Of a stretch of 56,309 nt of DNA, positions 3,697 through 45,354 are shown piece after piece (within the stretch, counting starts at the first letter, position 1; each line of letters opens with the position of its first letter). The DNA lies in assembly GCA_045641645.1 (NCBI GenBank), contig JAZUHK010000071.1, positions 1 to 56,309 on the forward strand, given 5' to 3'. The DNA comes from Kiritimatiellia bacterium. GTDB lineage: Bacteria > Verrucomicrobiota > Kiritimatiellia > RFP12 > UBA1067. The notes beneath the pieces were generated by a model. That model had not been told where the DNA came from, made no database searches, and saw nothing but the letters and a program-made list of their open reading frames with translations. The translations under genes were made by a program, and so were the position numbers.

Positions 3697-4665
3697 TCAT
3701 GACTTCACGGGCCGCCGCCGCCAGAAGCTGGCAATGATCGAACCCGAGAAGTTCATCCAAATCGAAAACACATTCGCCGGCAGAGCCGCCGTCGCACTTT
3801 CAAGGACCTCCGTCGCAAGCGCCCCCGCCATTCCGCCGTTCTGCATCGCCACCTCTATCGCCACCGTGCGCGCATCGCTCTCGGTGAAGCGGAAGAACCG
3901 CCCGCATAGGCGCGTAAGCCAATAGCCGGCGAGATAGCCGAAGGAGTTGTGGATGACCGCCGCGACGATGATGAGCGCGCCCGCCGTCTTGAAGGTCTCG
4001 CGGCTCGGCGCGGTGAGCGCGAGGATGGTGTAGCAGATGCCGGCCATCGAGACGAGCGAGAGCACGCGGTCGCACCCGACCTTGTGCGCTTCGAGAAAGC
4101 GGCGGAAGACGACGCGCACGACGCCGCCCGCGAAAACGGGAACGATGACGATCTTCAGGATCGAAACGGCCATCGCCATCGCGTCGATGGCGACGAAACG
4201 CCCGGCGAGCAGCTTCATCATCAGCGGCGTCACGAACGGTGAAAGGAGCGTGGAGCAGCAGGTCATCGTGACCGAGAGCGCCACATTCGCCTTCGCGAGA
4301 TAGGCGATCACGTTCGAGGCGGTACCGCCCGCGACCGAACCGATGAGCACGCACCCGGCGGCGAGTTCGCCCGAAAAGCCAAAGGCGCGGGCGAGCGCGA
4401 AGCCGACGAAAGGCATCACCAGGAACTGCAGCACCACGCCCGTCGCCACCGCCCACGGGCATTTGGCGACCCGCAGGAAGTCGGCGAGCGTAAGCGTCGT
4501 CCCCATTCCGAACATGATCACCTGAATGGCAGGCGAGACGAGCGAAGTGAGCTTCACGCCGCCCCAGGCGGTAAAGCACTCCGGAAACGCGAACGAAACC
4601 GCCGCCGAGGCGAGAATGGCAAGTCCGAAGGACTGACGCTTCAAGATTCGGACAAAAGCATTCAC
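3697..4665 (-). CDS. Bile acid:sodium symporter (BASS) family transporter
   Basis: IMFGMG, QFLVMP, GGTASNV, HNSFG and AIEVAMQNGG motifs; multiple transmembrane segments. Confidence 0.9.
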   Translation of the reverse strand: MNAFVRILKRQSFGLAILASAAVSFAFPECFTAWGGVKLTSLVSPAIQVIMFGMGTTLTLADFLRVAKCPWAVATGVVLQFLVMPFVGFALARAFGFSGELAAGCVLIGSVAGGTASNVIAYLAKANVALSVTMTCCSTLLSPFVTPLMMKLLAGRFVAIDAMAMAVSILKIVIVPVFAGGVVRVVFRRFLEAHKVGCDRVLSLVSMAGICYTILALTAPSRETFKTAGALIIVAAVIHNSFGYLAGYWLTRLCGRFFRFTESDARTVAIEVAMQNGGMAGALATEVLESATAALPANVFSIWMNFSGSIIASFWRRRPVKS

Positions 4666-5427: not shown

Positions 5428-6412
5428 CCTTCTTAACCACCTTCTTCATGTCATTGAGACACGACTTGTCGGCGACGAGCACGTAATCGCCCGTCGTGAC
5501 CACCACGAGGTTCTTCACCCCGAGGAGCGAGATGCGCGCGGCGCGGGCGACGCAGACATTGCCCTCCGACTGAACGACCGTACACGGCCCCTCCCGCACA
5601 TTGCCCGCCGCATCGTGGGGAAAGTACCGGTCGAACGCACCGTAGCTGCCGACATCGTCCCAGCCGAAATCGCCGGGCACCACCGCCACCGCAGGATACT
5701 TCTCCATCACCGCGTAGTCGAAGCTGATCTTGGGCAGCGCGGGATAAATTCGCGCGAGACGCCGCACCGCCCCCGGGCTGAACAGCGGCTCCAGTTCCGG
5801 CGCATGGGCGGCGAAGGCGCCGCGAAAGGTGGCGGCGGAGGCGATGAACATCCCCGCATTCCAGAGATAGCCCTTCTTCACATAGGCACGCGCCTTGCGG
5901 AGATCGGGCTTCTCGACGAAAACGCCGCGCTTCGGGTCGATGTAGCCGAAGGCGGTGGAGGGGCAGGTGGGGCGGATGCCGAGCGTGACGATGGACTTGC
6001 CGCGAGCGGCCACGCGAATCGCCCGCCGGATGGCGGCGCGGAACTTCGCGCCCTTGGCGACGAGCTGATCCGAGGAAAAGAAACCTACCACCGTCCGCTC
6101 GTCCGCGCCGGCGAGCCCCGCGCCGAGCGCGACGGCGGCGGCAGTATCGCGCCGACAAGGTTCGCCGACGATGTTCGCCGCGGGAAGTTCGGGCAGCTCC
6201 CGGGCGGTAGCCGCGACGAGCGCGCGCGAGGTGATGACGAAGACATCCTTGCTCGCCACGAGCCCGGCGAGGCGCGAAACGCTCTGCCGCAGAAGACTCT
6301 CCCCGCCGAAGACCCTAAGAAACTGCTTGGGCTTTTCGCCGGTGGAAAGCGGCCAGAACCGCTCACCGCTGCCGCCGGCGAGAATCACCGCCTTGAAGTG
6401 TACGGATTGCAT
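5405..6412 (-). CDS. manC: Mannose-1-phosphate guanylyltransferase
   Basis: ILAGGSGERFWPLS...PKQF, FVEKPD, WNAGMF, SFDYAVME and GWDDVGS motifs. Confidence 0.92.
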   Translation of the reverse strand: MQSVHFKAVILAGGSGERFWPLSTGEKPKQFLRVFGGESLLRQSVSRLAGLVASKDVFVITSRALVAATARELPELPAANIVGEPCRRDTAAAVALGAGLAGADERTVVGFFSSDQLVAKGAKFRAAIRRAIRVAARGKSIVTLGIRPTCPSTAFGYIDPKRGVFVEKPDLRKARAYVKKGYLWNAGMFIASAATFRGAFAAHAPELEPLFSPGAVRRLARIYPALPKISFDYAVMEKYPAVAVVPGDFGWDDVGSYGAFDRYFPHDAAGNVREGPCTVVQSEGNVCVARAARISLLGVKNLVVVTTGDYVLVADKSCLNDMKKVVKKVEGLEKV

Positions 6413-7016: not shown

Positions 7017-7985
7017 TTATTCGTGATTGAAGAGATCGTTGATCGACACGTCGTTATGCGTGCGACGAATGGCCTCGCCGATCAAAGGCGCCACCGAAAG
7101 CTGGGTGAGCTTGAAGGGAAGCTTCGACGGATCGAACCCCTCGCGCAGCTTGATCGAATCGGTCACGACGAGCTCATCAAGGAAGCCCTCGGTCATCAGC
7201 CGCTCCGCACCTTTCGGCGTGAGCGGGAAGTGCGAGACGAACGCATGCACCGACTTAGCCCCGTTGTCGCGGCACATCTTCGCCGCCGCCGACAGGGTGC
7301 CGCCCGTCGCCGTCATGTCGTCGATCATGATGACATCGTGACCGTTCACGTCGCCGACGATCGAGAACGACTCCACCGTATCGCCGCCCGTGCGCTGCTT
7401 GGCGACGATGGCGAGCCCGCAGCCGAGCTTGCGGCTGTAGCCGTAGGCCGTCTTCGCCCCGCCCGTATCCGGCGCGACGATGATCGGGTTCGACCAGTGC
7501 TGGTCGCGGATGTACTTGAGGATGATCGGCTCCGCCTTGAGGTGATCGAGCGGAATGTCGAAGAAGCCCTGGATCTGGTTGGCGTGCAGATCGAGCGTCA
7601 TCACCCGGTCGGCACCCGCGGCCTCCAGGAGGTTCGCGATGAGCCGCGCCGTGATCGGCACTCGCGGCTGGTCCTTGCGGTCCTGACGGGCGTAGCCGTA
7701 ATAGGGCAATACCGCCGTGATGCGCCTAGCGCTGCCGCGCTTCAGCGCGTCCATGATGATGAAGAGCTCCATGTACGCCTCGTTCGGCGACGGCGAACCC
7801 GACTGGATCACGAACACATCCTTGCCGCGCACCCCGTCAATCACCTGGCAGAAGGTCTCGCCATCGGGGAAATGGGGGATATTAATCGCATTAAGGGGCT
7901 TGCCGAGATATTCAGCCACCTTCTCGGCAAGCGGCAGATTGGCCGTGCCGGAGAACACCATGAAGTCATCTTTGAGTTCGCTCAT
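7017..7985 (-). CDS. prs: Ribose-phosphate pyrophosphokinase
   Basis: FPDGE, PYYGYARQDRK, DLHANQIQGFFD and IDDMTATGGTL motifs. Start taken at MSELK; an alternative start is at 7997. Confidence 0.95.
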   Translation of the reverse strand: MSELKDDFMVFSGTANLPLAEKVAEYLGKPLNAINIPHFPDGETFCQVIDGVRGKDVFVIQSGSPSPNEAYMELFIIMDALKRGSARRITAVLPYYGYARQDRKDQPRVPITARLIANLLEAAGADRVMTLDLHANQIQGFFDIPLDHLKAEPIILKYIRDQHWSNPIIVAPDTGGAKTAYGYSRKLGCGLAIVAKQRTGGDTVESFSIVGDVNGHDVIMIDDMTATGGTLSAAAKMCRDNGAKSVHAFVSHFPLTPKGAERLMTEGFLDELVVTDSIKLREGFDPSKLPFKLTQLSVAPLIGEAIRRTHNDVSINDLFNHE

Positions 7986-8038: not shown

Positions 8039-9148
8039 TTACGCCACGCCAAAGCGGAACTCGGTGACGGTATGATAGACCTCCCCCGCCTTCACGATGG
8101 TCGTAGGCCACTGTGGCTTATTGGGAGAGTCGGGCGCATGCTGGGTTTCGAGCGCCACTCCGCAGCGGAAGGAAAGATGCTCGCCGCCCTTCGCCGTCTG
8201 GTTGTAGTCGCTCCAGTTTGAGGTATAGACCTGGAGGCACGGCTCCATCGTCCAGACCTCGACCTTGCGCCCGTTGAGCGGATAGGAGACCTCACCCGCA
8301 TAGACCAGCTTCTTCGGCTTGCGGCCGGTGGCCATCTCGCCCTTGTCCAGAACCCAGTTGTGGTCGTAGCCGCGGCCGATCTCAAGATCCCGGTCGGCGG
8401 CGTTGATCTGCTCGCCGATGCGCATGCCCTTGCGGAAATCGAAAAGCGTCCCCGCGACCGGAACCACCTTCCCCGTCGGGATCTGCCCCTTGTCGGTAGG
8501 GGTAAACTTCGACGCGGCGATCTTGAGGACGTGATCCTCGATGGTGCCGCCCGCCTCGCCCTTGAAGTTGAAATAGACGTGCTGGGTCATGTTGATGGGC
8601 GTATCCTTGCTCGGCACCGCCTCGTAATCGACGCGCCAGACGTTGTCCTTGGTGAGCGTATAGGTGACCTTCACCTCGACCTCGCCCGGGAAGCCCTCGT
8701 CGCCGTCGGGGGAGACGTGAGTGAAGACCACCCCGACATCCGTTCCCTTCACGAAAGGCGCCGCCTTCCAGACGTAGGCGTCCCAGCCGCGCGCGCCGCC
8801 ATGGAGGTTGCAGCCGATCCCGGCCGGCGCGTTGTTGAGCGCGGGCAACTTGATCTGCTTGCCGTTCAACTTGAAGACGCCCTTGGCGATGCGGTTGCCG
8901 TAGCGGCCGATGATCGAGCCCCAGTAGGGATCGCCGTTGTCCCAGCCCGCCGGCGAATCGAAGCCGACGACCACGTCCTTGAACTTCCCCTGACGGTCGG
9001 GCGTGTAGAGCTTCACCACCTTCCCGCCGTAGTCGCTCACCTCCAGGACGACGCCGCCGGCGCCCTGCAGAACGAACTTCCTCGCCTTTTCGCCGTACTT
9101 CGTCTTGCCGAAGGGGCGGACCGTGACCGTGGGTTTCTTCATCTTCAC
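8039..9148 (-). CDS. galM: Aldose 1-epimerase (mutarotase)
   Basis: GRYGNRI, LHGG, GFPG, HVYFN, GYDHNW and ALETQ motifs. Confidence 0.92.
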   Translation of the reverse strand: MKMKKPTVTVRPFGKTKYGEKARKFVLQGAGGVVLEVSDYGGKVVKLYTPDRQGKFKDVVVGFDSPAGWDNGDPYWGSIIGRYGNRIAKGVFKLNGKQIKLPALNNAPAGIGCNLHGGARGWDAYVWKAAPFVKGTDVGVVFTHVSPDGDEGFPGEVEVKVTYTLTKDNVWRVDYEAVPSKDTPINMTQHVYFNFKGEAGGTIEDHVLKIAASKFTPTDKGQIPTGKVVPVAGTLFDFRKGMRIGEQINAADRDLEIGRGYDHNWVLDKGEMATGRKPKKLVYAGEVSYPLNGRKVEVWTMEPCLQVYTSNWSDYNQTAKGGEHLSFRCGVALETQHAPDSPNKPQWPTTIVKAGEVYHTVTEFRFGVA

Positions 9149-19670: not shown

Positions 19671-20308
19671 ATTCCTTCCTCCTTGGCGATCATCTCCCGC
19701 CCGGCAGCGACAATTCGCTTTTCGATGCGGGTTTTGATTTGGCTGACAAAATTGCGAGAAATACCGAACTTCCCGGCGACCGCGCCGATGTCCTCGCCTT
19801 CCAGCGCGTAGGCGCGATAGACCTGACGATCACGCTCGGAAAGCGCCGTATGCATGAGAACATGCTCCTGCGCCGCCTTGAGCACCGCCTTACGCCAGTC
19901 GTCATCCAATTGCTCGGGCGAGACATCGGCACCTGCGAGCGTATCGGCAATCGTCCCGCCATCGTCGCCAGCAATAGGCGCATCCATGGAAACGCGCTTA
20001 TCCACTTGGCGCACCATCTCCTTGCGGCGTGCCATATGCACCTCGTTGACGATCATCGTGGCAAGATAGGAATGGAAGCTGCCCTTCTCCGGCGAATACT
20101 GCCCCGAACGCAACACCTCCACCAGCTTACCCAGAACCGTCATGACGATATCATCGGCATTCTCCTCCCCGCCTTTGAACGCGGCGAAGGCGCGAATGGC
20201 CCCCTGGTAGGTATCCCAGAAACGAACCCAGGCGGCAGAATCCTCGCCCGGGGCGAGATCCTTGATCTTCGCAATCAGCGTAACGGACGTGACGGGGAAA
20301 GTGCTCAT
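19667..20308 (-). CDS. ECF RNA polymerase sigma factor (kinase-associated PVC type)
   Basis: TSVTLI...D..AW..F..TY region, GSFHSYL and C-terminal HTH (VAGKFGISRNFVSQIKTR). Overlaps the kinase stop. Confidence 0.88.
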   Translation of the reverse strand: MSTFPVTSVTLIAKIKDLAPGEDSAAWVRFWDTYQGAIRAFAAFKGGEENADDIVMTVLGKLVEVLRSGQYSPEKGSFHSYLATMIVNEVHMARRKEMVRQVDKRVSMDAPIAGDDGGTIADTLAGADVSPEQLDDDWRKAVLKAAQEHVLMHTALSERDRQVYRAYALEGEDIGAVAGKFGISRNFVSQIKTRIEKRIVAAGREMIAKEEGI

Positions 20309-21669
20309 TCGTCGAACGCCGTCCTTAGCTTATCCATGGCATTGTCGAGCAATTTGACGAGCGGCTCGACCTCGCCGACCTGGGAATATTCGCCCCCGCC
20401 GATGGACAGGCGGTCGAATGGCGACAGTTCGGAATCGGCGGCGATCATCTCGCGCAATCCCTCCAACTCGCGCAGGGCGCTATCGGCCGTAATCCTCCCT
20501 GCACGAAGGCCGTCCAATGTCTTATAGGTGAGAACCAAGGCATCCAGCCGCGCGGCCTCGAACTGCGCCCGCGATGGCATAATGACATTACCCTCGGCAT
20601 CTTCCGTTTCCTCGGCCTTCGCTTCGGCGGGAATTCGAAAGAGTTCGTCGAATTCCGGCACCAGCCCCGCATAGCCACCCGAGGCCATCTTCAACTTCCA
20701 GATTTCGTGGTCGCCGACATACTTGCGCGCACCGAACAGAAGCGCCACCAGCAATATTCCCGTGGCCACGCCGAGATACCTCGCCAAGTGCCGCGCCAGA
20801 TGTCCGCGCGACTTCTCCTTGAGCCACTTCTCCTCCCACTCGAACTCCGCTTTCTCCCGCGCGGCGGCCTTGGCTTCGGAATAAGAGAGGCACTCGCGCC
20901 CGTTGGGATTGGAGTGGAGAAGCTTTGGAAGAATCGTCTTCCAGGCGGGATCATAGGTATCGAGCGTCCCCACGACATCCGTCCTGGCATCACACCAAGT
21001 ACCCGTCAAAAGCCGATAGACGATGACGCCAAGCGCATACCAATCGCTCTGAGGGCTCGCCGCCACCCCCATCTCCAGCTCCGGCGCCATATACCCGAGC
21101 GAACCCATCACCAGCGAGCGACCCTTTCGCATCCTCACGATGGTATTGACAGTATCGACGATCTTCGCGCCATCTCCCTTCGCGTCGAAGATCTTGGAGA
21201 TGCCGAAGTCGGTGAGAACCGCGTGACCATCGGGACCGATGAGGACATTCTGAAGCTTGAGATCGCGATGAATGACGCCATTCGCGTGGATGTATGCAAG
21301 CCCCTCCCGGAGATCGTCATACCAGCGGCCGATGGTCTCCTCGTCTGCCGTTCCCGGCGCGATATCGGAGAGAAGCTGCATTTCGCCGCGCTCGTTGAGG
21401 ACGAGATCCATCACGAAGTAGGGCTTACCATCCTCGGTCACGCCGAAATCCGTCACCTTGACGATTCGCGGGTGACTCAGGCGCGCGAGCAACTTTCCCT
21501 CGATTTGAAACCGTTCCCTGACATCGGGGTCGTCCTTTTCATAGGTGAAGAGCTTCAGGGCATGCCGTGACCCGAGGCGTGAATTCTCAACCTCGTAAAC
21601 CTCACTCATCCCGCCCTTCCCCAAAAGACGGACGATTTCATATTCACCGATTCGCTGCCGTTCGCTCAT
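20305..21669 (-). CDS. Membrane-bound Hanks-type Ser/Thr protein kinase
   Basis: LGKGGMSEVY, ALK, HRDLKLQN, DFG, YMAPE and SDWYALG motifs, then a TM helix (LGVATGILLVALLFGA) and a C-terminal extracytoplasmic region. Confidence 0.93.
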   Translation of the reverse strand: MSERQRIGEYEIVRLLGKGGMSEVYEVENSRLGSRHALKLFTYEKDDPDVRERFQIEGKLLARLSHPRIVKVTDFGVTEDGKPYFVMDLVLNERGEMQLLSDIAPGTADEETIGRWYDDLREGLAYIHANGVIHRDLKLQNVLIGPDGHAVLTDFGISKIFDAKGDGAKIVDTVNTIVRMRKGRSLVMGSLGYMAPELEMGVAASPQSDWYALGVIVYRLLTGTWCDARTDVVGTLDTYDPAWKTILPKLLHSNPNGRECLSYSEAKAAAREKAEFEWEEKWLKEKSRGHLARHLARYLGVATGILLVALLFGARKYVGDHEIWKLKMASGGYAGLVPEFDELFRIPAEAKAEETEDAEGNVIMPSRAQFEAARLDALVLTYKTLDGLRAGRITADSALRELEGLREMIAADSELSPFDRLSIGGGEYSQVGEVEPLVKLLDNAMDKLRTAFDE

Positions 21670-21676
21670 AGTGGAA

Positions 21677-21685
21677 ATTATATCA
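21677..21685 (-). promoter_or_regulatory. Extended -10 promoter, leaderless kinase-ECF operon
   Basis: TGATATAAT lies 7 nt upstream of the ATG. Confidence 0.65.
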
Positions 21686-21710
21686 AAAACTGCCGCAATG
21701 TGCTGACAGA

Positions 21711-21840
21711 ATAAACGAAACCCGGGGCTTTTCGCTCCGGGTCGTTCAAGGTTAGTTCAGAAAGAACTCAAATGATTCGTGGATCTCCGATCGGATCGTC
21801 AAGGCCGTTTGTTTCCTCTCCCCATATCCTCAATCCACAA
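21711..21840 (-). ncRNA. Candidate small RNA, copy 1 (intact, ends in an intrinsic terminator)
   Basis: Highly similar to 37711-37843 plus 39347-39354 on the other strand, including an identical 30 bp block. It ends in CCCGGAGC-GAAAA-GCCCCGGG-TTTCGTTT. No reading frame is conserved between the two copies. Confidence 0.55.
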
Positions 21841-21845
21841 GAGTA

Positions 21846-21873
21846 TATGCGGGGATTTGAGGGCGATGACAAA
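21846..21873 (-). promoter_or_regulatory. Bipartite motif TTTGTCATCG-N11-CCGCATA (possible ECF-type promoter)
   Basis: The same two boxes, with the same spacing but a different spacer sequence, occur at 37690-37717. Confidence 0.5.
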
Positions 21874-35762: not shown

Positions 35763-35795
35763 AAAAAGGCGCGGATTCAAATCCGCGCCTTTTTT
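35763..35795. terminator. Intrinsic terminator after Cys-rich paralog A
   Basis: AAAAAGGCGCGGATT-CA-AATCCGCGCCTTTTT, with A/T tracts on both sides. Confidence 0.85.
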
Positions 35796-35817: not shown

Positions 35818-36582
35818 TTAGAGAACCGGGGTCTCGGTCTCGGCGTCAGCCTTGACGAACTTCGCCGGAGTCAGGGTCTTCTCGATGTTAGCACCGCCAC
35901 GGATGGCGTCAACCTTGTCCTGACGATAGGTGAGCGACCAACGGCCATAGGCAATCACCTTGGCGGCATCGCCAGACACCCAATCAACATCACCCTTGCA
36001 CGGCGCGAAAACCTGAGCAGTGCCAGTCTCCTGGTACTCGCAACCGATGATGTCACCGCACTTCGGGGTCTCGAGCGTACCAGCGAAGAAGCCGTTCGCG
36101 CTCTTGAGCTTGCGGGACTCCGGATTGAACGCGCCAAAGCCAGCGAGATAGAGGTCGTCCATCTTGATGCCAATCTGCGCCTTGTTCTTCAGACCACCAT
36201 TGCGGAGGACGTCGAAGACCTCGAAGCTGACCTCATCGAACTTGACCTGCTCCTTGTTGGCGTTCCAGAACCAGAGTTCGTCGCCGAGCGTCGCAAACGT
36301 GTTGCACTCGCACTCCGCGCAACCCGGATTCTCGAGCGTGAAGCCACCGTAGATGTAGCCCGCGACACGATAGGAAGCCGGCTTAGCCCAGCAACCCGAC
36401 TCGTAATCGCAGGTCGTCACGCTGCCCTTCGTGAGGGACTTAGCGACAACCGTCTTGCCCGCGAGCTTCAGACGATAGGCAAAGCCGCAATAGTTCTTGG
36501 TCGAGCAAGGATCGTCATCCGTGGCCGCCACAACAACACCGCCCATCGCAACCGCGAGAGCAGCAATCATGAGTTTTTTCAT
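35818..36582 (-). CDS. Secreted Cys-rich protein, paralog A (silent orientation)
   Basis: MKKLMIAA signal peptide; 10 Cys including CxxCxC; motifs AYRxKLAGKT, CWAKPASYR, LRNGGLKNKAQ, KLKSANGFFAG and YGRWS. Confidence 0.9.
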   Translation of the reverse strand: MKKLMIAALAVAMGGVVVAATDDDPCSTKNYCGFAYRLKLAGKTVVAKSLTKGSVTTCDYESGCWAKPASYRVAGYIYGGFTLENPGCAECECNTFATLGDELWFWNANKEQVKFDEVSFEVFDVLRNGGLKNKAQIGIKMDDLYLAGFGAFNPESRKLKSANGFFAGTLETPKCGDIIGCEYQETGTAQVFAPCKGDVDWVSGDAAKVIAYGRWSLTYRQDKVDAIRGGANIEKTLTPAKFVKADAETETPVL

Positions 36583-36699
36583 TTTGTTTTGTTCTTTCTT
36601 TTTTTCGCCTTACGCTTTCAGCAAACGGTCTGTCCGCGTTCAGCGAGGTTAACCTTGTCTCTCCTTGGAATCAAGGTATCGGACACCGTGTCCGAGACC
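36533..36699 (-). repeat. Left inverted repeat of the invertible segment (leader plus signal-peptide start of gene A)
   Basis: Reverse complement of 39434-39592. The 60 bp at 36600-36659 are identical to 39471-39530. The inner edge is the palindrome GGTATCGGACAC-C-GTGTCCGAGACC (36675-36699). Confidence 0.92.
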
Positions 36700-37655
36700 G
36701 AAATCCTTGGAAGTGCCTTCGCTATTGCACGACGCAATACGGGAAGAGCTGGTTGCGTATAGCGGGCGTGCATGGTGCCGCTAGCGTGCCCGGTGATGGC
36801 ATCGGTGATGTAGGGCTGTACGCCAGCCTCGTCCATCAGTGAAATGAAAGTGGCACGGAGGGAATGAAAACTTGCGCGGCCATTTCCAATTTTGCGGATT
36901 CTTGCGGCTTTGAAAATGGCTGCAATGCGACGGGATGAATGTTTGCGAACGGATTCAGGGAAAAGGTATTGGGAGGTGCCCTTTGCGCGTGCGCGTACGA
37001 TTTCATAGGCATCGCCGACAAGCGGGATGGTCAGAGGGTGCGGTTTTCGCGTGCGGACTTTGTTGGGGACGATTTGAAGAGCATCGTGAGTGCGCATGAT
37101 CTCGCACAATTCCAATTCTGCAATGTCTGACAGGCGTAGGCCAGTCCAATATCCAATGAGAATCATATCGGCCAAATCCGAATTGCGACTTTGAGCACAA
37201 CGGACCAGCCGACGAATTTCTGACGTGCTTAACCGACGGTAATGTTCGCCAAGAGGATGCTGAATGGCCTCGCGAACATCCCAGATCGCAGAATCAAGTC
37301 CAAAAAATCGCCAAACACGCTTGTAAAAACGAAAGCGTCTAGCAGGATTGATTGTATTTGCGGTCAATTCCAATGCCAGGTTTGCTGCGGAATCACGGCA
37401 AAAATTTGATGGAAAGTCTATTTTGTGTTGTTTTGCGTAGCATGATAGAGCAGTGAGCCAGCGTTCGTAATCGAGTCGGCTACCATCTGGAATTGGCGGA
37501 TATGCGTTACTTATAAATGTTTTTGTAATAAAATGCCATGTTATATGACTGTTCTTGCCCTTTGCGGACAATAATTTCTTGGCGCATTCTCCGATTTTTG
37601 CGAAGAATCGTAGCCAATCCTCGTTGCTCTTCATTTGCGTGAGATTAATTTCCAT
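36618..37655 (-). CDS. Tyrosine recombinase (probable invertase)
   Basis: TGLRLSD, K, FHSLR, TGH and ARY give the R-K-H-R-H-Y catalytic set. Start chosen at 37655 because TGTTATAAT lies 10 nt upstream; alternative starts are 37634 and 37790. Confidence 0.9.
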   Translation of the reverse strand: MEINLTQMKSNEDWLRFFAKIGECAKKLLSAKGKNSHITWHFITKTFISNAYPPIPDGSRLDYERWLTALSCYAKQHKIDFPSNFCRDSAANLALELTANTINPARRFRFYKRVWRFFGLDSAIWDVREAIQHPLGEHYRRLSTSEIRRLVRCAQSRNSDLADMILIGYWTGLRLSDIAELELCEIMRTHDALQIVPNKVRTRKPHPLTIPLVGDAYEIVRARAKGTSQYLFPESVRKHSSRRIAAIFKAARIRKIGNGRASFHSLRATFISLMDEAGVQPYITDAITGHASGTMHARYTQPALPVLRRAIAKALPRISVSDTVSDTLIPRRDKVNLAERGQTVC

Positions 37656-37689
37656 AAGGCGTTGGATTATAACATCAAATTTTAAAAAG

Positions 37690-37717
37690 TTTGTCATCGA
37701 GCTTGTGCAGCCGCATA
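37690..37717 (+). promoter_or_regulatory. Second copy of the TTTGTCATCG-N11-CCGCATA motif
   Basis: Matches 21846-21873 (minus strand); sits back-to-back with the recombinase promoter. Confidence 0.5.
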
Positions 37718-37721
37718 CATC

Positions 37722-37843
37722 CTTATGGATTGAGGAACGGCGAGCGGAAACAAACGGCCACGATGACCCGATCGGAAATCCACGAATCATTTGAGTTCTT
37801 TCTGAACGAACCTTGAGCGGACCCGGAGCTGAAAAGCCCCGGG
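37722..37843 (+). ncRNA. Candidate small RNA, copy 2 (terminator tail displaced by the IS)
   Basis: Paralogous to 21711-21840. The hairpin ends at 37843 and the TTTCGTTT tail resumes at 39347. Confidence 0.5.
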
Positions 37844-39342
37844 CCCAGTTTGTCAAATAGAACGTGTACCCTGTAAGTAGGCGGGGACTTTTCGGTTCGT
37901 CAAATACTGTGTACTTTGGAGGTGTTGTTTTCTTTTGCTTTGAGGCTTGGGTAGGAGCGAGATGCCGCCGACCTGGAGAGCGCCCGTATCGGACGTCCCC
38001 GGAGGGGCGTCGCGAAGCGACGAGTCCGGCAGGGCGCTCTCCAGGAATACCTTGTCATGCGAGCGCTTGGACTGGGTGTATTCCTCCTGCCGCCGGATGA
38101 TCCTGCGCAGCCGCTTCGCCAGCCGGTGTCTCAGCTCGATGGGGTGCAGGCTGTTGCGATAGGCCGTCAGCGCGGCTTCCGCTTCGGGTGTCAGCACGTG
38201 CTCGTCAGGCACGCGCTGGTAAGGTGTTCTCGGCTTGTCGTACTTGCAGGAGTATCCCTTGCCGTCGTCGCGTTTGACCTTGTCGACGAGCATTTTGCAC
38301 GGTCTGAAGAAGTTGCAGAAGTCGGACCATTCCTCGCAGAGCCTGATCAGGTCGTCGAGCAGGTCGTGGCAGTCTATCCGCCGTTCTCCGAACAGCTGCC
38401 TTCCGACGGAGCGGTTTTTCTCCTCGACGTGGGCGTTGTCGTTGCAGTGCCTGGGCCTGGACCTGGACAGGTACACGCCCGGCCTGTTCTTCCCGAGGAA
38501 TGCCGCGATGTGGTAGTTGATGATCTCCGAACCGTTGTCTCCGTGCAATGACGAGATCGGGAACGGGATCTTGGGCTCGATGCGCTTGAGCGCCTCGAGC
38601 GTCGCGTGTTGGCCCCGGTTCCACGTCGGGCTGAGTACGGTCCACTGGGTCTTGCGGTCGGTGCCGTCGAGGATCCAGAAGAAGTTCTCCGAGGGGTCTC
38701 CGCCTCCGAGTGCGAACGTGTCGATCTGGACGTCGCCCGGCGGGACGTCGCAAGCCCTGACGGTCTCCCCCGAATGGCAGGGGATCGCGTTCTTGAGCTC
38801 GTCGTTCCGTCCGGAACGCTTGTTCGTCTTCGTGTAGCCCGGCTTGATACGCGGCAATCCCTTGAGCAAACGGTCCATCGATGACGCGCTCATCTTCAGG
38901 ATCAGGTCCTTCGTGGCCTTGTTGACGTTGGCCACGTATTGCTCGTACTCGTCCATCCACATTCCGATGCCCGTCTGCAGGTAGGGTGTGCAAGGGCAAC
39001 CGGCTTCGCGCCAGATGTCTGCCAGGGTTGCGGCGACTTTCGGCCCGTAGGTCTTCCCCCGTCCTTTCCTGGCGCGGTAGCGGATATTCCCGTTGAGCAG
39101 GTTGGTGACGTATTTCCGGGTGAATCCCGTCGTCTCCTGGACTTCGTCGAGAATCTGAGACCTCTTGGCCTTGCTGGCGCAGAGGTATCTCTTTCGTTTT
39201 GCGGCGATGTATTCAGCGGTCGATTTGCGTGACATTTCGTTCATGCCCCATATTTTACTCGGGTACACAGTATTTGACGAACGGGGTGCCCGTCATTTCG
39301 AGCATTCCTTGGTTTGGGTACACACTATTATGACAAACTGCG
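37844..39342 (-). mobile_element. Insertion sequence, 1,499 bp, DDE/rve transposase (ISNCY-like), 4 bp target duplication CGGG
   Basis: Ends are CCCAGTTTGTCA...GTGTACCC and GGGTACAC...TGACAAACTGCG. An inner perfect 20 bp IR lies at 37895-37914/39263-39282. CGGG occurs at 37840-37843 and 39343-39346. Removing the IS restores the sequence seen at 21713-21742. Confidence 0.88.
37853..39244 (-). CDS. DDE-type (integrase core) transposase
   Basis: N-terminal RKRY...KRSQILDE...TGFTRKY; PGDVQID, D-RKTQW, HGDNGSE and NDNAHVEEKN motifs. The exact start (39244 or 39235) is uncertain. Confidence 0.88.
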   Translation of the reverse strand: MNEMSRKSTAEYIAAKRKRYLCASKAKRSQILDEVQETTGFTRKYVTNLLNGNIRYRARKGRGKTYGPKVAATLADIWREAGCPCTPYLQTGIGMWMDEYEQYVANVNKATKDLILKMSASSMDRLLKGLPRIKPGYTKTNKRSGRNDELKNAIPCHSGETVRACDVPPGDVQIDTFALGGGDPSENFFWILDGTDRKTQWTVLSPTWNRGQHATLEALKRIEPKIPFPISSLHGDNGSEIINYHIAAFLGKNRPGVYLSRSRPRHCNDNAHVEEKNRSVGRQLFGERRIDCHDLLDDLIRLCEEWSDFCNFFRPCKMLVDKVKRDDGKGYSCKYDKPRTPYQRVPDEHVLTPEAEAALTAYRNSLHPIELRHRLAKRLRRIIRRQEEYTQSKRSHDKVFLESALPDSSLRDAPPGTSDTGALQVGGISLLPKPQSKRKQHLQSTQYLTNRKVPAYLQGTRSI

Positions 39343-39378
39343 CGGGTTTCGTTTCCTAAAAAAATTAAAAATACCCCA

Positions 39379-39408
39379 TTGACAGGTCAACACAAATTAT
39401 GCGATAAT
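39379..39408 (+). promoter_or_regulatory. Strong sigma70 promoter inside the invertible segment, pointing at the right repeat
   Basis: TTGACA-18 nt-GATAAT with an extended TG and an A-tract UP-like element at 39357-39373. Confidence 0.8.
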
Positions 39409-39433
39409 ATGCGCGTCTTCACCGAGGAAGGGT

Positions 39434-39592
39434 TCGGACACGGTGTCCGTGATCTTGATTCCAAGGAGAGGACAAGGTTAACCTCGCTGAACGCGGACAG
39501 ACCGTTTGCTGAAAGCGTAAGGCGAAAAAAGAAGGAACAAAAAAATGAAGAAACTCATGATTGCTGCCGTCGTTGTTGCGATGGGCGGTGTT
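39434..39592 (+). repeat. Right inverted repeat (leader plus signal-peptide start of gene B)
   Basis: Begins with TCGGACAC-G-GTGTCCG (39434-39449); matches the left repeat. Confidence 0.92.
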
Positions 39593-40339
39593 ATGTCTGC
39601 TACGGCCGCCGTTGATGAGGGTTGCGACTATGTCGGCTGCCCGTTCGCATATCGGATCAAGCTCGCTGGCAAGACCGTTGTCGGCAAGACCGCGAAGTCG
39701 GACAAGCTGACCCCGAAGGAGGAAGGAGAAGGATGCGGCTACGCCACCGATTGCTGGGCGAAGCCGGCTTCCTATCGTCTCGCAGGGTACATCTGGGGCG
39801 ACGGGGTCAAGGGCGAGGACGAGTGCTCCAAGTGCGGATGCATCGACTACACGACATTCGACAACGAAGCGATCTTCTGGGATGCCAACAAGGTTCAGCA
39901 GTTCGCTGACGTCACCTCGGTGGAGTTCGAAGTCTTCGACATCCTCCGCAACGGCGGCCTCAAGAACAAGGCGCAGATCGCGTTCAAGCTCGGCGACGTC
40001 CAGCTCGCTGGCTTCGGCGTTTACAACCCGAAGACCCAGAAGCTCAAGAGCGCGAACGGCTTCTTCGCCGGTAAGCTCGATGCTCCGAAGTGCGCTGGTG
40101 AGTGGAACAAGTCGAGCTGCGACTACGGCGAGGGCAAGACGGCTCAGGTCTTCGCTCCTTGCGCGCTTGACACGGCGGAGGTTGCCAAGGCGGCGATTGT
40201 CTACGGCCGTTGGTCGCTCACTTATCGTGCCGACAAGGTTGCTGCCTACAGCGCGAAGAAGGGTGGCGACAAGAGCGTCTTCTATCCGTCGGCGTTCAAG
40301 TACGCTGACGCCGTTGCTGAAGACGAAGACAACGACTAA
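39545..40339 (+). CDS. Secreted Cys-rich protein, paralog B (promoter-facing orientation)
   Basis: Same signal peptide, 10 Cys and conserved motifs as paralog A; the only well-supported plus-strand gene in the window. Confidence 0.92.
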   Translation: MKKLMIAAVVVAMGGVMSATAAVDEGCDYVGCPFAYRIKLAGKTVVGKTAKSDKLTPKEEGEGCGYATDCWAKPASYRLAGYIWGDGVKGEDECSKCGCIDYTTFDNEAIFWDANKVQQFADVTSVEFEVFDILRNGGLKNKAQIAFKLGDVQLAGFGVYNPKTQKLKSANGFFAGKLDAPKCAGEWNKSSCDYGEGKTAQVFAPCALDTAEVAKAAIVYGRWSLTYRADKVAAYSAKKGGDKSVFYPSAFKYADAVAEDEDND

Positions 40340-40363: not shown

Positions 40364-40402
40364 ACAAGCCGACCGAGGAGCAATCCTCGGTCGGCTTGTT
40401 TA
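40364..40402 (+). terminator. Intrinsic terminator after paralog B
   Basis: ACAAGCCGACCGAGGA-GCAA-TCCTCGGTCGGCTTGT followed by TT. Confidence 0.85.
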
Positions 40403-40492: not shown

Positions 40493-41284
40493 CTACTCGT
40501 ACCGCCTCGTGCCGTCGCACTCGGGGTACCTCGAACAGCTCCAAAAGGCATGGCCTGCGTTGACCCCTCGCTTGCAAAGACGCTTTCTCATCGGTGCGCC
40601 GCATTTCGGACAAGCGACTTTCTCGCCTCGCGCATCGATGCTGCGCTGGGCGTCCCTGACCTCGAGCCGCGCCTTCGTGAGCGCCTCCGAGACGCCGCCG
40701 TTCTCGGCGATTTCGTCAACGAGTGCATCCATCTGAGCGCGAAGCATGCCCATCGCCATGCGAATGACAACCAGCTGGGCATTGGCGGCGACAAGCGGAT
40801 TTTCATTCTCAAGCCACTTCGCATAACGCTTGCGCATCTCAAGGATATAGGCGCTATGGCGGTGAACGACGTCTTCCGTCTCGTGAAACGGGTCAAGCCG
40901 CATTGCCCTGACCGCCGCGTATTCGGCGCTTTTCTCCGACCAGGCGATCTCGTCCAAGTCTGTGATAAACGCCTCGTAGTCGCCTGCGAGTTCGGCGAGC
41001 GAACCTTTGGCAACATCGTATTGCTTCAGTTCCTGTTCTTTCGACGTCGCCCCGCGTTCGCTGCCCTCGACGATATTCTGCCGCGCCGAACGCGCCGCAC
41101 CGACCATCTGGCCGACCGTTTTCCCGAGCGCATCGTTCTTGTAGTTGTAGTTCCGCCGACAAAACGTCGTCGTCGCGTGATAGATGAGACACGTCATCGC
41201 AAAGGCGTAAGAGCGCCGATACCCGCCGCTACGGCCGAGTACGCGCGCCGCGCGATTTGGGGCCAAAGGCGATGTTTCGTTCAT
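40493..41284 (-). CDS. Four-helix-bundle suffix-domain protein with C-terminal topoisomerase-type C4 zinc finger
   Basis: SGGYR..., QMVGAARSARQNIVEGS, VAKGSLAEL..DYE, AANAQL, GGVSE.L...R; C-terminal CPKCGAPM...FWSCSRYPEC. Confidence 0.88.
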   Translation of the reverse strand: MNETSPLAPNRAARVLGRSGGYRRSYAFAMTCLIYHATTTFCRRNYNYKNDALGKTVGQMVGAARSARQNIVEGSERGATSKEQELKQYDVAKGSLAELAGDYEAFITDLDEIAWSEKSAEYAAVRAMRLDPFHETEDVVHRHSAYILEMRKRYAKWLENENPLVAANAQLVVIRMAMGMLRAQMDALVDEIAENGGVSEALTKARLEVRDAQRSIDARGEKVACPKCGAPMRKRLCKRGVNAGHAFWSCSRYPECDGTRRYE

Positions 41285-41456: not shown

Positions 41457-44400
41457 TCAGGGGACGGCACTATAGGTGAAGCCGGTCGGATAGAGGCAGT
41501 TGAAGTTGTCGTCCTCCTCAATCTGACGAACCTTGTCGGCCTTGTAGGTCATCGTCCAGCGGCCATAGACAATCGCGGCCTCGGAGTTCACAGGCTCCGT
41601 AAGTGCGCACGGCTCAAAGACCTGAGCAGGCGTCGTGCCCCACTCGCAGTCTTCGCCAAGCTTGCCGCAGGTCGGCGCGGCGAGCACGCCAGCGAAGAAG
41701 CCGTTCGCACTCTTGAGCTTGCGGGTCTGCGGATTAAATGCGCCGAAGCCCGCGAGCTTGATATTCTCGCCGATCTTGATGCAAAGCTGCGCCTTGTTCT
41801 TGAGACCGCCGTTGCGGAGAATGTCGAAGACGTCGAACGTCAGGGGCTCGCCCGCAAACGCCTGCTTGCGGTCGGCCGTCCAGAAGTGACTCTGCACGTC
41901 CGCAAAGGCGTTGCATTCGCACTCCTCGCACTCGGCCGGCTCGGTGGGCGAGGCGTTGTAGATGTAGCCCGCCACACGGAAGGACGCCGGCTTCGCCCAG
42001 CAATTGGACTCGTAGTCGCAACCGCCGACCTTACCGCTCGTCAATTCCTTGCCCGTCACCGTCTTGCCCGCGAGCTTGACACGGTAGGCATACGCACAAT
42101 AGAGGTGGTCGCAGCCGCCTGCCTCCGCCGTGATGAACACGAGCGTCGAGAACTGGCCCATCTGAAGCGTCACCTCGCCGTCACCAACCTTATACTGGCC
42201 GGGGAAATCCTTCGAGCTGGTGAAGGAGGAAACCTTCGACATTTCGCGCATGTCCTCACCATGGCAGTGATAGACCGCCTTGAGATTGTCGGTGTCGGCA
42301 AACGCCACCTTGAACTGGATCGGCTTGGTGATCTTGCTGGCGTCGGCCACGAGCTCGGGAGTCTGCGGGCCAGCCGAAGTCGTCTCGATATACATAAGCT
42401 TCACATCAACCGGCTTCGCATCAAGAAGCGTCATGGGCGGACAATACCTCTTCTCAAACGCCTCCTTGGCGGCCGTAACATTGCCATCGGCGCTGCCTCC
42501 CTTCGGATCAGTAATGGCAAGCGTCGCATCCGCCGTAATCCAACCCGTCCGATCCTTGGAAATATTCTTTGCCACCGCCATCAGCGCCTCATCAGTCTTC
42601 TCCGTCTTCGGAGAGCCCTCCGTGGCCCAGTCGCCGGCAGCTTCCTTGTCAATCTCGGTAATGCGCTCCTGAATCGTCACATACGCCCAGACATTCGTCG
42701 AGTAGTAGTTGTCACACTCGACCTTGCACCAAACCTTCTTCTCGTAGCAAATATCCTTGAGCTCGGCGCGCGCGGCGGCCTCTTCAAGCCAGGTCGAGCC
42801 GCCGTCAACCGAGTAGGTAAACTTCGGGTTGTCCGACTTCTTCAGCAGTGAAGTCTCCACGACGATAAGCTGGCCGTCGCCGACCGACGTGTCGTTCGTG
42901 ACGATCGAAACCGGCTTCGCCCATGCCCACACGGGAATCTTCGTCTCCTCCGTGCCGTTGTCATAGCCGTTGATCACCGCCTTGTTAATCGTGAAGGTGC
43001 CGGGCGTGAACTCGACAATGTAGTTCTGGTTCGCCGTCAGGATCTTGTTCGTCGTGATGTCGCCCGTGTAAGTGCCGGCATCGGCACTGCCCGACTTGCG
43101 AACGAACGCCGTCACCTTGCCCTGATTGTTAGTAATGCCCGCGGAGATGAGGGCGTTGATCGTATTCGTTTCGCCAACTGCATAATCACCGGTAATCGTC
43201 CACTCCGTCTCCGAGAGATTGGCCGTCGCCGTGCCGTCATAGGTCTTCGAGGCGTCGCCGGCCGTCACCGTCACGGTGAGCGGGGTGATCTTAAGCGTGG
43301 CCGACTGCGATTCGTCGGAGGGCTTATAGGTGTCATCCCCGATGATGACGACCTTGACATCAACCGGCGTGTCAACGACGTCCTTGAAAGCCGCATAGAA
43401 ATTGGCAACCGTGTTCGTCGTCCAGGTCGTACCGCCGTCCGTCGAATAGGCGAGCTTGTAGTAAGACGCAACGAGCGGCTTGCCCGAATCCTTGTCCGTC
43501 ACGCTCACGGTGACGTTCGTCGACGCTCCGTTATACGGACGATTGACCGCGGAAACGGTGAACTCAAATTCCGGCAGCTCGACGATCCAGGCGTTGGCCG
43601 CAGCCGCAGCACCGGTCGCCAGCGTCCCCTGCTTCTTGCCATCAAGCGAACGGGAAAGCTCCATCGTTGCGTCGCCATTGTTCGGATTGACGTTAAACGT
43701 ACCGTCGCCGTTCGAGGTGCAGAACTTCTGATCGCCCTTCGCATCGGCAATCGCCTTCGCCATGAACTCGGGCGTCGTACGGACCTTGATCTCGAGCTTC
43801 TGCCAAACGCTGCCGTTCAGGTTCGAAACGACGCACGTAACCTGATCGCCATTGACCTTCGGTTGCTTCTTGGTATCGGTCTCCTTCACCCAGCCAGTGT
43901 CATCGGCCATATAGTCATCGGCCACCGGATCGTCCTTGCCCGTCCAGTTCCACAGCGTCACGCTGCCAGTTTCAGTGGGGATACTCATCGTGCCGCCCGC
44001 CGTGACGACCTTGTCGGCCGCCGCCGCCGCGAAGGACGGGAACTTCACATACTTGTTAATGGCATCTTCAACCTTATCGGCATCGCCATAGTTTTCCTGC
44101 TCATCAATACGCGTCGCATACTTGTATCCAGCCTTGTACCCAACATTGACACCATCCGTAGTGCCGACGTAATTCACGTTATTCGTCATATACGTCATCG
44201 GATCCATCAGTGCCACAAAGCCATTCCACTGTGCATCCGTCATCTTCTTATCCGTTCCGTCCTTTTCATATGTGTTGGGCGTAAACCACGGCGGCATCTT
44301 CGCCTTGGGGTTCGACGTGGTGCCAATGTTATCAAAGAATGGATCGTCGCTACTACCCTTGGAGTCCACGAGCCAAAGCACTTGATTCTTCTCATAGAAC

Positions 44401-45275
44401 TTTTTCAGGCAACGCGCCGCGCAATCTTCCAAGTTCTTGTCGGGATTGTAACCGGCGACCAAACGTGTGCTGTCGAACGACAAGACAACGTAATCGTACT
44501 GCTTCCACGCGCCACTGGCAATGTCAAGCTTGTTAGTGATGAGCGTCAAATACGCCTTCAGATTCTTGTGCACACTGGCTTGCGCTGCAGTGCTCCCGCT
44601 TGTAGAAGTCAAAGTTGGAAAATCAGACGCCTCGGCAGTAGCATCCTTCGTAAAGACTTTAGGGCCATACCCTGACACAGGAGTGGTGTTGTCCGCCGAC
44701 CCGAAATAGGAACCGCCATCATTGTCAAATAGGTAGAAATCAACTTCACCCTTCGACGTCATCGCATTAACCGCACGCGCAAGAATTTCCGTGGTCAAGC
44801 CATGCTTGCCGCAACGCGAACCAATGTAGAGAATCTGAGGCGTACGGTCGGTCTTGCCGCAGTCAACGTGCGTGACGACGCGAATCGTCGCGTTCGACTT
44901 GCCGTCTTCGCCATCATCCGCCTTGATCGACTTTTCCATCTCGACCGTCGAGACATAGACATTGAAGGTGTACTCGACATCCTCCGGGCTGCGCGCCACG
45001 ACTTCGGCCTGACCGTTCGCCACGGAAGTGATGGCCACGACGTTCTTGTTGTCGTCGTCCTTCTCCCACTCGACCGTCGCAACCGTCTTGTCGGACGAGT
45101 GCAGAACCCAGTTCGCCGTGGCCGCATCCGCGACATTGAGCTTAGCGAGCATGTTCGACGTCACGCCAACCGTCATCGTCACGTCACACGACTCATCGAG
45201 ATCAGCCGCCCAAGCGGAAGACCCGAGAACCACCGCCGCCACAAGGGCAAGCGCCGACTTGATCATTTTTTTCAT
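41457..45275 (-). CDS. Large secreted adhesin-like protein (Ig/Big-2-like and MBG-like repeats) with a C-terminal copy of the Cys-rich domain
   Basis: Start MKKMIK with a signal peptide; SSDKTVATV (Big-2-like); VTVTAGDASKTYDG...NY...PGTFTI (MBG-like). The last ~220 aa are homologous to paralogs A and B. Confidence 0.85.
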   Translation of the reverse strand: MKKMIKSALALVAAVVLGSSAWAADLDESCDVTMTVGVTSNMLAKLNVADAATANWVLHSSDKTVATVEWEKDDDNKNVVAITSVANGQAEVVARSPEDVEYTFNVYVSTVEMEKSIKADDGEDGKSNATIRVVTHVDCGKTDRTPQILYIGSRCGKHGLTTEILARAVNAMTSKGEVDFYLFDNDGGSYFGSADNTTPVSGYGPKVFTKDATAEASDFPTLTSTSGSTAAQASVHKNLKAYLTLITNKLDIASGAWKQYDYVVLSFDSTRLVAGYNPDKNLEDCAARCLKKFYEKNQVLWLVDSKGSSDDPFFDNIGTTSNPKAKMPPWFTPNTYEKDGTDKKMTDAQWNGFVALMDPMTYMTNNVNYVGTTDGVNVGYKAGYKYATRIDEQENYGDADKVEDAINKYVKFPSFAAAAADKVVTAGGTMSIPTETGSVTLWNWTGKDDPVADDYMADDTGWVKETDTKKQPKVNGDQVTCVVSNLNGSVWQKLEIKVRTTPEFMAKAIADAKGDQKFCTSNGDGTFNVNPNNGDATMELSRSLDGKKQGTLATGAAAAANAWIVELPEFEFTVSAVNRPYNGASTNVTVSVTDKDSGKPLVASYYKLAYSTDGGTTWTTNTVANFYAAFKDVVDTPVDVKVVIIGDDTYKPSDESQSATLKITPLTVTVTAGDASKTYDGTATANLSETEWTITGDYAVGETNTINALISAGITNNQGKVTAFVRKSGSADAGTYTGDITTNKILTANQNYIVEFTPGTFTINKAVINGYDNGTEETKIPVWAWAKPVSIVTNDTSVGDGQLIVVETSLLKKSDNPKFTYSVDGGSTWLEEAAARAELKDICYEKKVWCKVECDNYYSTNVWAYVTIQERITEIDKEAAGDWATEGSPKTEKTDEALMAVAKNISKDRTGWITADATLAITDPKGGSADGNVTAAKEAFEKRYCPPMTLLDAKPVDVKLMYIETTSAGPQTPELVADASKITKPIQFKVAFADTDNLKAVYHCHGEDMREMSKVSSFTSSKDFPGQYKVGDGEVTLQMGQFSTLVFITAEAGGCDHLYCAYAYRVKLAGKTVTGKELTSGKVGGCDYESNCWAKPASFRVAGYIYNASPTEPAECEECECNAFADVQSHFWTADRKQAFAGEPLTFDVFDILRNGGLKNKAQLCIKIGENIKLAGFGAFNPQTRKLKSANGFFAGVLAAPTCGKLGEDCEWGTTPAQVFEPCALTEPVNSEAAIVYGRWTMTYKADKVRQIEEDDNFNCLYPTGFTYSAVP

Positions 45276-45354
45276 GTTTTTTCTTTCTTGTTTTTTGAAC
45301 AAAATTGAACACACTTTACCGATGGCAGACTACACCACGGGCAAAGTTGGAGGT

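Follow-up and report, generated by a model that had tools for sequence, protein, structure and literature searches.

The window analyzed here is a stretch of 56,309 nucleotides (nt) that makes up the whole of one contig (C71) in a 1.77-Mb metagenome-assembled genome (MAG) of a gut bacterium from the little-studied class Kiritimatiellia, an assembly of 94 contigs that is 71% complete and has 62% G+C. Within it, two genes for paralogous cysteine-rich proteins, A and B, diverge from a segment (36696-39433) that is probably a self-contained invertible expression cassette alternating between them. In the proposed mechanism, a recombinase encoded within the segment would recombine two inverted 16-bp palindromic cores at its ends, and a single sigma70-type promoter, about 25 nt inside the core on the recombinase 5' side, would fire outward through that core. 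In the orientation assembled, the promoter would read through the site and the leader into gene B. After inversion, the same promoter would read through site and leader into gene A, and the recombinase would then be aimed at B. The outcome would be alternate expression of two secreted, cysteine-rich, all-beta paralogs that are 52% identical. The evidence for inversion comes from comparison with related loci rather than from reads of the window genome. For the window copy, continued flipping, activity of the promoter and full or near silence of the recombinase-side gene are inferences. The features of the locus are as follows.

35763-35794, minus strand: terminator of gene A, a 14-bp stem followed by a T-run
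35818-36582, minus strand: gene A, predicted secreted cysteine-rich protein of 254 amino acids (aa) with MKKLMIAA as its first residues; paralog of B and, as assembled, located at the 3' side of the recombinase and not behind the promoter
36583-36678, minus strand: leader of gene A, the outer part of the left inverted repeat
36618-37655, minus strand: tyrosine recombinase of 345 aa if, as is most likely, it starts at the ATG of 37655; its last 27 codons cross the palindrome into the leader of A
36679-36695: left core site, palindrome TCGGACACCGTGTCCGA, proposed crossover site
36696-39433: proposed invertible segment, 2738 bp, or 1239 bp without the insertion sequence, drawn by analogy with relatives
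37666-37674, minus strand: TGtTATAAT, an extended -10-like element whose end lies 10 nt upstream of the recombinase ATG; candidate promoter of a putative near-leaderless mRNA
37711-37843 and 39343-39378: conserved upstream element of 134 nt, split by the insertion sequence and 87% identical to 21721-21852
37844-39342, minus strand: 1499-bp insertion sequence that separates the recombinase from the switch promoter; it has an open reading frame (ORF; 37853-39268) for a DDE/rve-like transposase and a target duplication, CGGG
39379-39408, plus strand: switch promoter TTGACA-18-(TG)GATAAT, reading outward across the right core site into gene B
39434-39449: right core site, palindrome TCGGACACGGTGTCCG, in opposite orientation to the left site
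39450-39544, plus strand: leader of gene B, structured and conserved between species
39545-40339, plus strand: gene B, predicted secreted cysteine-rich protein of 264 aa, behind the promoter as assembled
40364-40399, plus strand: hairpin after gene B, a perfect 16-bp hairpin with a short T-run; likely terminator

Parts of the proposed cassette

An earlier reading of the same DNA, made from the letters alone (the sequence-only reading), had described A and B as divergent genes whose leaders form inverted repeats with an identical block of 60 nt, and both descriptions are accurate. Leader and first signal-peptide codons are 93% identical between A and B over 130 nt (36567-36695 against 39434-39560), exact block included. 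Without the codons, the leaders agree at 96% over 97 nt, and the assembly has no third copy of them. On the inner side, the similarity starts exactly at the palindrome TCGGACAC-S-GTGTCCG, as had been claimed. The two 16-bp palindromic cores are identical, face opposite ways and are the only such pair in the genome. No other long palindrome of this type occurs in the 1.77-Mb assembly, and the looser pattern CGGAC-N3-6-GTCCG is found 20 times, which is the chance level (13-28 in 10 shuffles). The window thus holds two sites only, and both lie in 5' untranslated regions (UTRs).

The recombinase, whose start codon was picked by homology to its closest relative (locus L093, 52% identity), matches the Pfam domain Phage_integrase (PF00589) with E=1.7e-16 and 60.9 bits against a cut-off of 27.1, over profile positions 2-168 of 172. 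Of the 64 columns that never vary among 16 relatives, it retains 62, GLRLSD, HSLRATF, TGH and RYTQ among them, and its catalytic Arg, His-x-x-Arg, His/Trp and Tyr motifs align with those of the archaeal XerA (PDB 4a8e, E=4.7e-9). The earlier description of a tyrosine recombinase with intact catalytic residues is therefore confirmed. Against the NCBIfam models of XerC/XerD type, the protein scores 20-30 bits (at best 29.7 against a cut-off of 220), far below cut-offs of 220-335. Phage_integrase is its sole Pfam match, and no Resolvase-type domain, as found in serine invertases, was detected in it. To judge by its sequence, the enzyme is a divergent simple tyrosine recombinase outside the named families, and membership of the FimB/FimE group is unsupported.

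An integrase acting at attachment (att) sites was also considered for this gene and set aside: there is no tRNA or tmRNA gene in the window and no direct repeat flanks the recombinase, and the 134-nt repeat, 16 kb away, is in inverted orientation. Extended -10 elements are found 7-10 nt before the start codon of both the recombinase (37655-37674) and a kinase gene (21669-21700), a sign that this organism may have mRNAs with no leader or almost none.

The switch promoter is the best of five promoter-like sites between 35600 and 40600. It faces B, matches 11 of 12 consensus positions, has an upstream TG and leaves 25 nt between its -10 and the right palindrome; the single near-consensus promoter that had been placed about 25 nt inside the right repeat is thus the strongest candidate in the region. 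Just upstream of it is an element of about 135-170 nt, of which an inverted copy (87% identical) precedes the promoter of a Ser/Thr kinase gene (20305-21669). The element is also found beside a homologous promoter in another species of the genus (genome G046, locus L058, 8724-8932), where there is no recombinase. It has no Rfam match, and in the DNA and RNA contig sets of four public sequencing runs its bins have the second-highest depth on the stretch, behind those of the leader and start codon.

The upstream element is interrupted by an insertion sequence (IS), which extends beyond the transposase ORF alone and whose limits were corrected to 37844-39342. Its ends were fixed by contig breaks in four public runs and by the CGGG duplication, which shows on comparison with the intact paralogous copy of the element at 21.7 kb. 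Entry was by simple insertion. The IS lies 36 nt upstream of the -35 of the switch promoter and about 170 nt upstream of the proximal -10 of the recombinase; promoter, recombinase ORF and -10 are uninterrupted. It may affect the activity of the switch. The transposase falls short of IS481 (33.2 bits against 224 for NF033577) and of Pfam rve (21.9 against 32.6), and its sequence marks it as a distant DDE/rve-like enzyme. Both IS ends carry two copies of a GGGTACAC...TATT motif. The IS is the part of the locus most widespread in public gut metagenome runs.

The proteins encoded by A and B are 52% identical (136/262), and both begin with a signal-peptide-like N-terminus, MKKLMIAA. A third copy of their domain forms the C-terminus of an adjacent 1285-aa protein (41457-45314, minus strand). 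Because of the signal peptide, and because the same domain ends this giant neighbor, A and B are predicted to be secreted or surface proteins. The sequence-only reading did not recognize the family, which indeed has no name: its 79 metagenomic members, 153-269 aa in length, are all unnamed and lack Pfam domains, and an alignment of 46 sequences has nine invariant cysteines. A Pfam search of A and B and an NCBIfam search of B, the only one of the two submitted to it, gave no match. The AlphaFold model of B, a confident one (mean predicted local distance difference test score 83.2, predicted template modelling score 0.77), is all-beta with long hairpins, and Foldseek found nothing in the PDB at E<=0.001 (best E=0.027, template modelling score 0.20). 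Between gene B and the giant gene, 40493-41284 encodes a protein with a four-helix-bundle domain of the 23S rRNA intervening-sequence type and a topoisomerase-type zinc ribbon.

Each gene had been credited with a strong terminator of its own. This holds for A, with its 14-bp stem and T-run; the hairpin of B is perfect over 16 bp, but its T-run is short and the terminator scan that found the one after A did not flag it.

Related loci and the case for inversion

The recombinase protein used alone as a query of genome contigs found no relative. An alignment-based scan of species-representative genomes then gave 28 loci, and a further 37 came from metagenome contigs, for a total of 65 (numbered with the prefix L). 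The 28 loci are mostly from MAGs labelled Kiritimatiellae, Kiritimatiellaeota, Verrucomicrobia or Lentisphaeraceae, from the guts of human, goat, cattle and chicken. A few of the contigs come from bins with other names. Three recombinase-bearing contigs, L065, L079 and L085, are assigned to Limosilactobacillus, Faecalibacterium and Lachnospiraceae bins, respectively, and are probably mis-binned.

The layout of the window recurs with other genes and other leaders. In L074 and L071, the recombinase again lies between two divergent cysteine-rich genes of the MKKLMI type, and, as in the window, genes for peptidyl-prolyl isomerases are found outside the flanking pair. The inverted repeats are 328 nt long in L074, 94 nt in L071 and 193 nt in L101, with identities of 94%, 100% and 79%, respectively; that of L074 starts exactly at the palindrome CGGACATTGTGTCCG and that of L071 at CGGACGTCATGTCTG, both of the CGGAC...GTCYG type. 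All three loci have only one promoter of the conserved type, located in unique DNA immediately internal to the arm on the recombinase 5' side. More generally, a promoter of the form CCCC-TTGxxx-N17-TAnAAT, facing outward from a fixed position about 25 nt inside the palindrome, is present in all 14 loci that have a palindrome on the recombinase 5' side, with 59-64 nt from the first C of CCCC-TTG to the site in the eight loci where both were located. Beyond this site there is a leader in 12 of the 14, nine of which also have an MKK-type gene start by motif scan, and unrelated DNA in the other two (L065 and L083). The recombinase is inside the cassette in every locus examined.

The partner cores, read outward, are identical to one another in 10 of 10 two-site loci, while seven different central spacers occur among the loci. 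Strand exchange by tyrosine recombinases needs an identical overlap between partner sites, whatever its sequence, and identity of partners despite differing spacers fits this requirement.

Both orientations of the cassette are present across related taxa, with L065 and L083 representing one and L096, L066 and L113 the other. The recombinase regions of L065 and of the group formed by L096, L094 and L066 are 86-87% identical. At the promoter-side junction, the insides of L065 and L096 are identical at 72 of 77 positions and their outsides are unrelated. Conversely, the outside of L065 on the recombinase side matches the promoter-side outside of L096, a leader, at 177 of 197 positions, with unrelated insides, and the promoter-side outside of L065 matches the recombinase-side outside of L066 at 118 of 174. 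The point of exchange between L065 and L096 is the end of the 16-bp palindrome. The same exchange is seen at the level of genes. A flanking gene that is orthologous across L065, L083 and L113 (64% and 56% aa identity, E of about 1e-114 or lower) is found at the recombinase 3' side of the first two and at the promoter side of the third, and the promoter-side gene of L074 is 62% identical to the recombinase-side gene of L101. The flipping promoter segment proposed from the sequence alone thus gains support from comparison, through the recurrence of the cassette, the identity of the partner cores and the opposite orientations with junctions at the palindrome.

Inversion by RecA-type homologous recombination between the 130-nt leader repeats, with the recombinase uninvolved, as reported for sap of Campylobacter fetus, is barely credible here. 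The repeat, at 93% identity and with an exact block of 60 nt, could allow rare homologous exchange, but the boundary of homology coincides with the palindrome in the three species aligned (the window, L074 and L071) and the recombinase is always within the cassette. In L065, L073, L077, L078 and L083, moreover, the outer flanks of the two sites have no similarity to one another, and a repeat search of the five loci detected only weak repeats of 48-58 nt, all of them in L065. What the two sites of these relatives have in common is essentially just the 16-bp core, which is too short for RecA and points to site-specific rather than homologous recombination.

What a flip would select differs between loci. 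In L073 and L078, the flank without a leader begins with an outward-reading gene resembling glycosyltransferases, and inversion would choose between two transcription units. One species (L070, L072, L102, L104, L105, L106, L109, L110, L112, L118, L121 and L122), in which the recombinase region is mostly 96-99% identical (about 86% in L118), has the stretch from recombinase through leader to ATGAAGAAACTCATGATTGC joined to at least five unrelated downstream genes or flanks in different assemblies, with homology ending right after the MKKLMIA codons. A rearrangement system with many partners is one possible explanation, a hypervariable island another. The two MAGs with L070 and L072, both incomplete, were searched for the alternative downstream flank of L102, and it was not found. 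In L014, which is the same as L082, a recombinase of the same clade lies between two convergent giant paralogous genes whose 3' ends form an inverted repeat of 141 nt (3997-4137 and 5987-6127), with a further repeat of 119 nt at 100% identity (979-1097 and 9003-9121); this shufflon-like layout could swap C-terminal parts.

Evidence against a working switch in the window

Several observations weigh against the proposal that the window locus flips between A and B. The activity of the switch promoter is itself a prediction, drawn only from its consensus match and its conservation. The inverted form of the locus was found in no read or contig of four public runs, in which the organism is present at about 2-3x as contigs. 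In these runs, its own genes appear only as assembled contigs, and none of them bridges either palindrome. Among public runs in general, the best share of sampled window words is 0.29, and that share is mostly the IS and two short, widely repeated pieces. Nor was a species found with two assemblies in opposite states: L066, L094, L096 and L113 are all alike, as are L073 and L078.

Expression of A is a second difficulty. It had been noted that only recombinase coding sequence lies upstream of A, and this is true. The recombinase frame, however, runs in the same direction as A, has no stop before the left palindrome and ends 36 nt short of the start codon of A. Because the recombinase reads toward A with no terminator between them, A may be transcribed by read-through or at a low level, and need not be silent. 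The description of the locus as an either/or switch accordingly stands as far as the single promoter between two paralogs is concerned, but exclusivity may be leaky.

A third group of observations concerns the recombinase and its surroundings. Like L093, the window enzyme lacks the N-terminal region 'GSIQRKGR...SLKTG' that most of the clade possesses, and the window has none of the TTAGAA-type repeats that occur between recombinase and site in L065, L066, L071 and L101. In those loci, the stretch from the stop codon of the recombinase to the core site downstream contains paired TTAGAA-N5-TT(A/G)GAA sequences, at about 9085-9110 in L065, at about 4695-4720 in L066, at 7420-7445 and 7555-7580 in L071 and at 6310-6335 and 6440-6465 in L101; they may be accessory (arm-type) binding sites.

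One rival reading is a locus that descended from a genuine cassette and no longer flips, locked with B constitutive and A expressed only by read-through from the recombinase, whether through insertion of the IS, the short N-terminus of the recombinase or loss of the accessory region between recombinase and site. The IS does lie within the divergent promoter region, the recombinase has neither the N-terminal region of most relatives nor a stop codon before the site, the leaders are 93% identical where those of L080 and L071 reach 98-100%, and the inverted form has not been seen in the low-depth contigs. A locked switch is nevertheless unlikely. Both core sites are perfect and identical, the recombinase retains its 62 of 64 invariant columns, and the IS spared promoter and ORF. 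The divergence of the leaders says nothing about activity, because they lie outside the crossover. Finally, L093 has the same short N-terminus and frames through the site are also present in L080, L093 and L095. Since they are shared in this way, both features look like traits of a subfamily rather than signs of decay.

A different objection comes from the palindrome, which is retained as a stem in six other species that have a single-copy unit of promoter, stem, leader and gene. No recombinase was found in the fetched flanks of these single-copy leader loci (0 of 7, some on short contigs). Four of the six pairs of the stem show double changes and none is broken, with G-U pairs in up to four of eight sequences at two positions. 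Because the stem is kept by compensatory and G-U changes where no recombinase is nearby, the sequence of the core site also has a role at the level of RNA, or some other role, that is independent of recombination. It may be that the core site was recruited from such a stem.

The leader that follows behaves in the same way. In the species represented by G046, a single-copy leader is 87% identical to that of B, and its protein is only about 30% identical. The consensus fold of the leader has double compensatory changes in 8 of 28 predicted pairs. Because the leaders lie outside the crossover and this single-copy leader is so similar, the resemblance of the A and B leaders reflects largely purifying selection on a conserved, structured 5' UTR and is no sign of homogenization by recombination. 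An Rfam search of the window gave no match at the gathering score, a permissive search of 36540-37900 gave a single snoRNA match at chance level (E=0.91), and a search of 7300-7900 of L074 gave none; the leader is a candidate for a new cis-regulatory leader RNA absent from Rfam. Across the gene family, the 5' UTR (39410-39544 and 36583-36720 of the window, and loci L058-L064) is conserved between species far more than the proteins are. Of 401 genomes sampled from the class as a whole, 3 gave a match to the combined motif of site and leader, CGGAC-N5-GTCYG-GGCCTAGG; they are 3 of the 25 genomes from the window's own family, against 0 of 375 from other families. Further downstream, the ribosome-binding region and first codons, AAGAAAGAACAAA..ATGAAGAAACTCATGATTGC (39525-39565 and 36562-36604), are conserved at the nucleotide level before many genes genus-wide. 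A 136-nt query from this region matched at least in part in 64 of 117 genomes of the genus, mostly over that stretch only and with up to five matches per genome.

These data allow for a static locus, in which the palindrome is only a 5' UTR stem, A and B are an inverted duplication, the recombinase is an unrelated integrase, A is co-transcribed with the recombinase and B has its own promoter. Such a model would account for covariation of the stem, G-U pairs included, in species with a single-copy leader and no recombinase nearby, for the strong purifying selection on the leader between species (87% to G046) and for the shared direction of recombinase and A. It is very improbable all the same, as it leaves unexplained the second palindrome, without a leader, on the recombinase 3' side of L065, L073, L077, L078 and L083, the identity of partner cores in 10 of 10 loci with seven spacers and the exact reciprocal exchange of junctions between L065 and L096/L066. 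There is also no tRNA or att-like direct repeat.

Relation to known switches and significance

An invertible cassette in the window would be a known type of switch in a new form and lineage, and not a new principle. It resembles the H-segment of Salmonella (hin, fljBA), in which a recombinase and an outward promoter also lie inside a segment between short inverted sites and a flip changes a surface protein. Hin requires Fis and an enhancer, and the alternative gene in Salmonella is switched indirectly through a repressor. Hin is described, in a passage of PMC11868660, as a serine invertase that acts at hix sites. The window enzyme, in contrast, is a tyrosine recombinase, and two structural genes flank the cassette directly.

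Tyrosine recombinases invert promoters between short inverted repeats in fimS of E. coli (with FimB/FimE), in the invertons of Bacteroides and in the RecV system of C. difficile. In these systems, the recombinase is encoded outside the segment, and most of the switches turn one operon ON or OFF. The window differs in having the recombinase inside the segment, with a frame that crosses one of the sites, and in switching between two genes. A parallel in outcome is sap of Campylobacter fetus, for which Dworkin and Blaser in 1996 reportedly described an invertible segment, with the only promoter on it, between sapA homologues in opposed orientation. There too, a lone promoter flips between paralogous surface-protein genes with conserved 5' ends. 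Inversion of sap depends mainly on RecA, acting over long homology at the 5' ends, and is not known to use a dedicated recombinase within the segment, whereas in the type found in the window a recombinase is always present and a 16-bp core is enough in relatives. Lastly, the vsa/hsd systems of Mycoplasma pulmonis (HvsR) and the shufflons use a tyrosine recombinase and short sites near the 5' ends of variable surface genes, with one expression site shared by several alternative genes. Their sites lie in coding sequence and many silent genes take part, unlike the window with its two sites, both in 5' UTRs. A multi-partner version may exist in a related species.

A broader view of the cassette is tentative and on present evidence rather doubtful. 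It may be a portable expression site of one gut Kiritimatiellae family, recruited at many loci to control ON/OFF states, either/or surface genes, or a surface protein against a glycosyltransferase operon, with possible exchange of partners among many MKKLMIA-led genes in some species and with the core site doubling as the first stem of the 5' UTR. If partner exchange is real, it would amount to multi-gene antigenic variation. If the dual role is real, one sequence would serve both as a DNA recombination site and as a regulatory or stabilizing RNA hairpin.

A search of full-text literature found nothing that connects Kiritimatiellae with invertons or DNA inversion, and no mention of them among the papers listed on invertible DNA or phase variation; the supplementary catalogues of PhaseFinder and PhaVa were outside this search. 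The parts of the cassette (a 16-bp core, a promoter at fixed distance and an internal recombinase) make it easy to search for in metagenomes and to test in a heterologous host, and it may be useful as a small orthogonal tyrosine-recombinase switch. Kiritimatiellae are common yet almost uncultured members of animal and human gut communities. The locus points to their varying secreted or surface proteins of an unnamed family by means of a compact cassette that can be read from sequence, and it flags proteins of the A/B type as probable targets of phage or host immune pressure.

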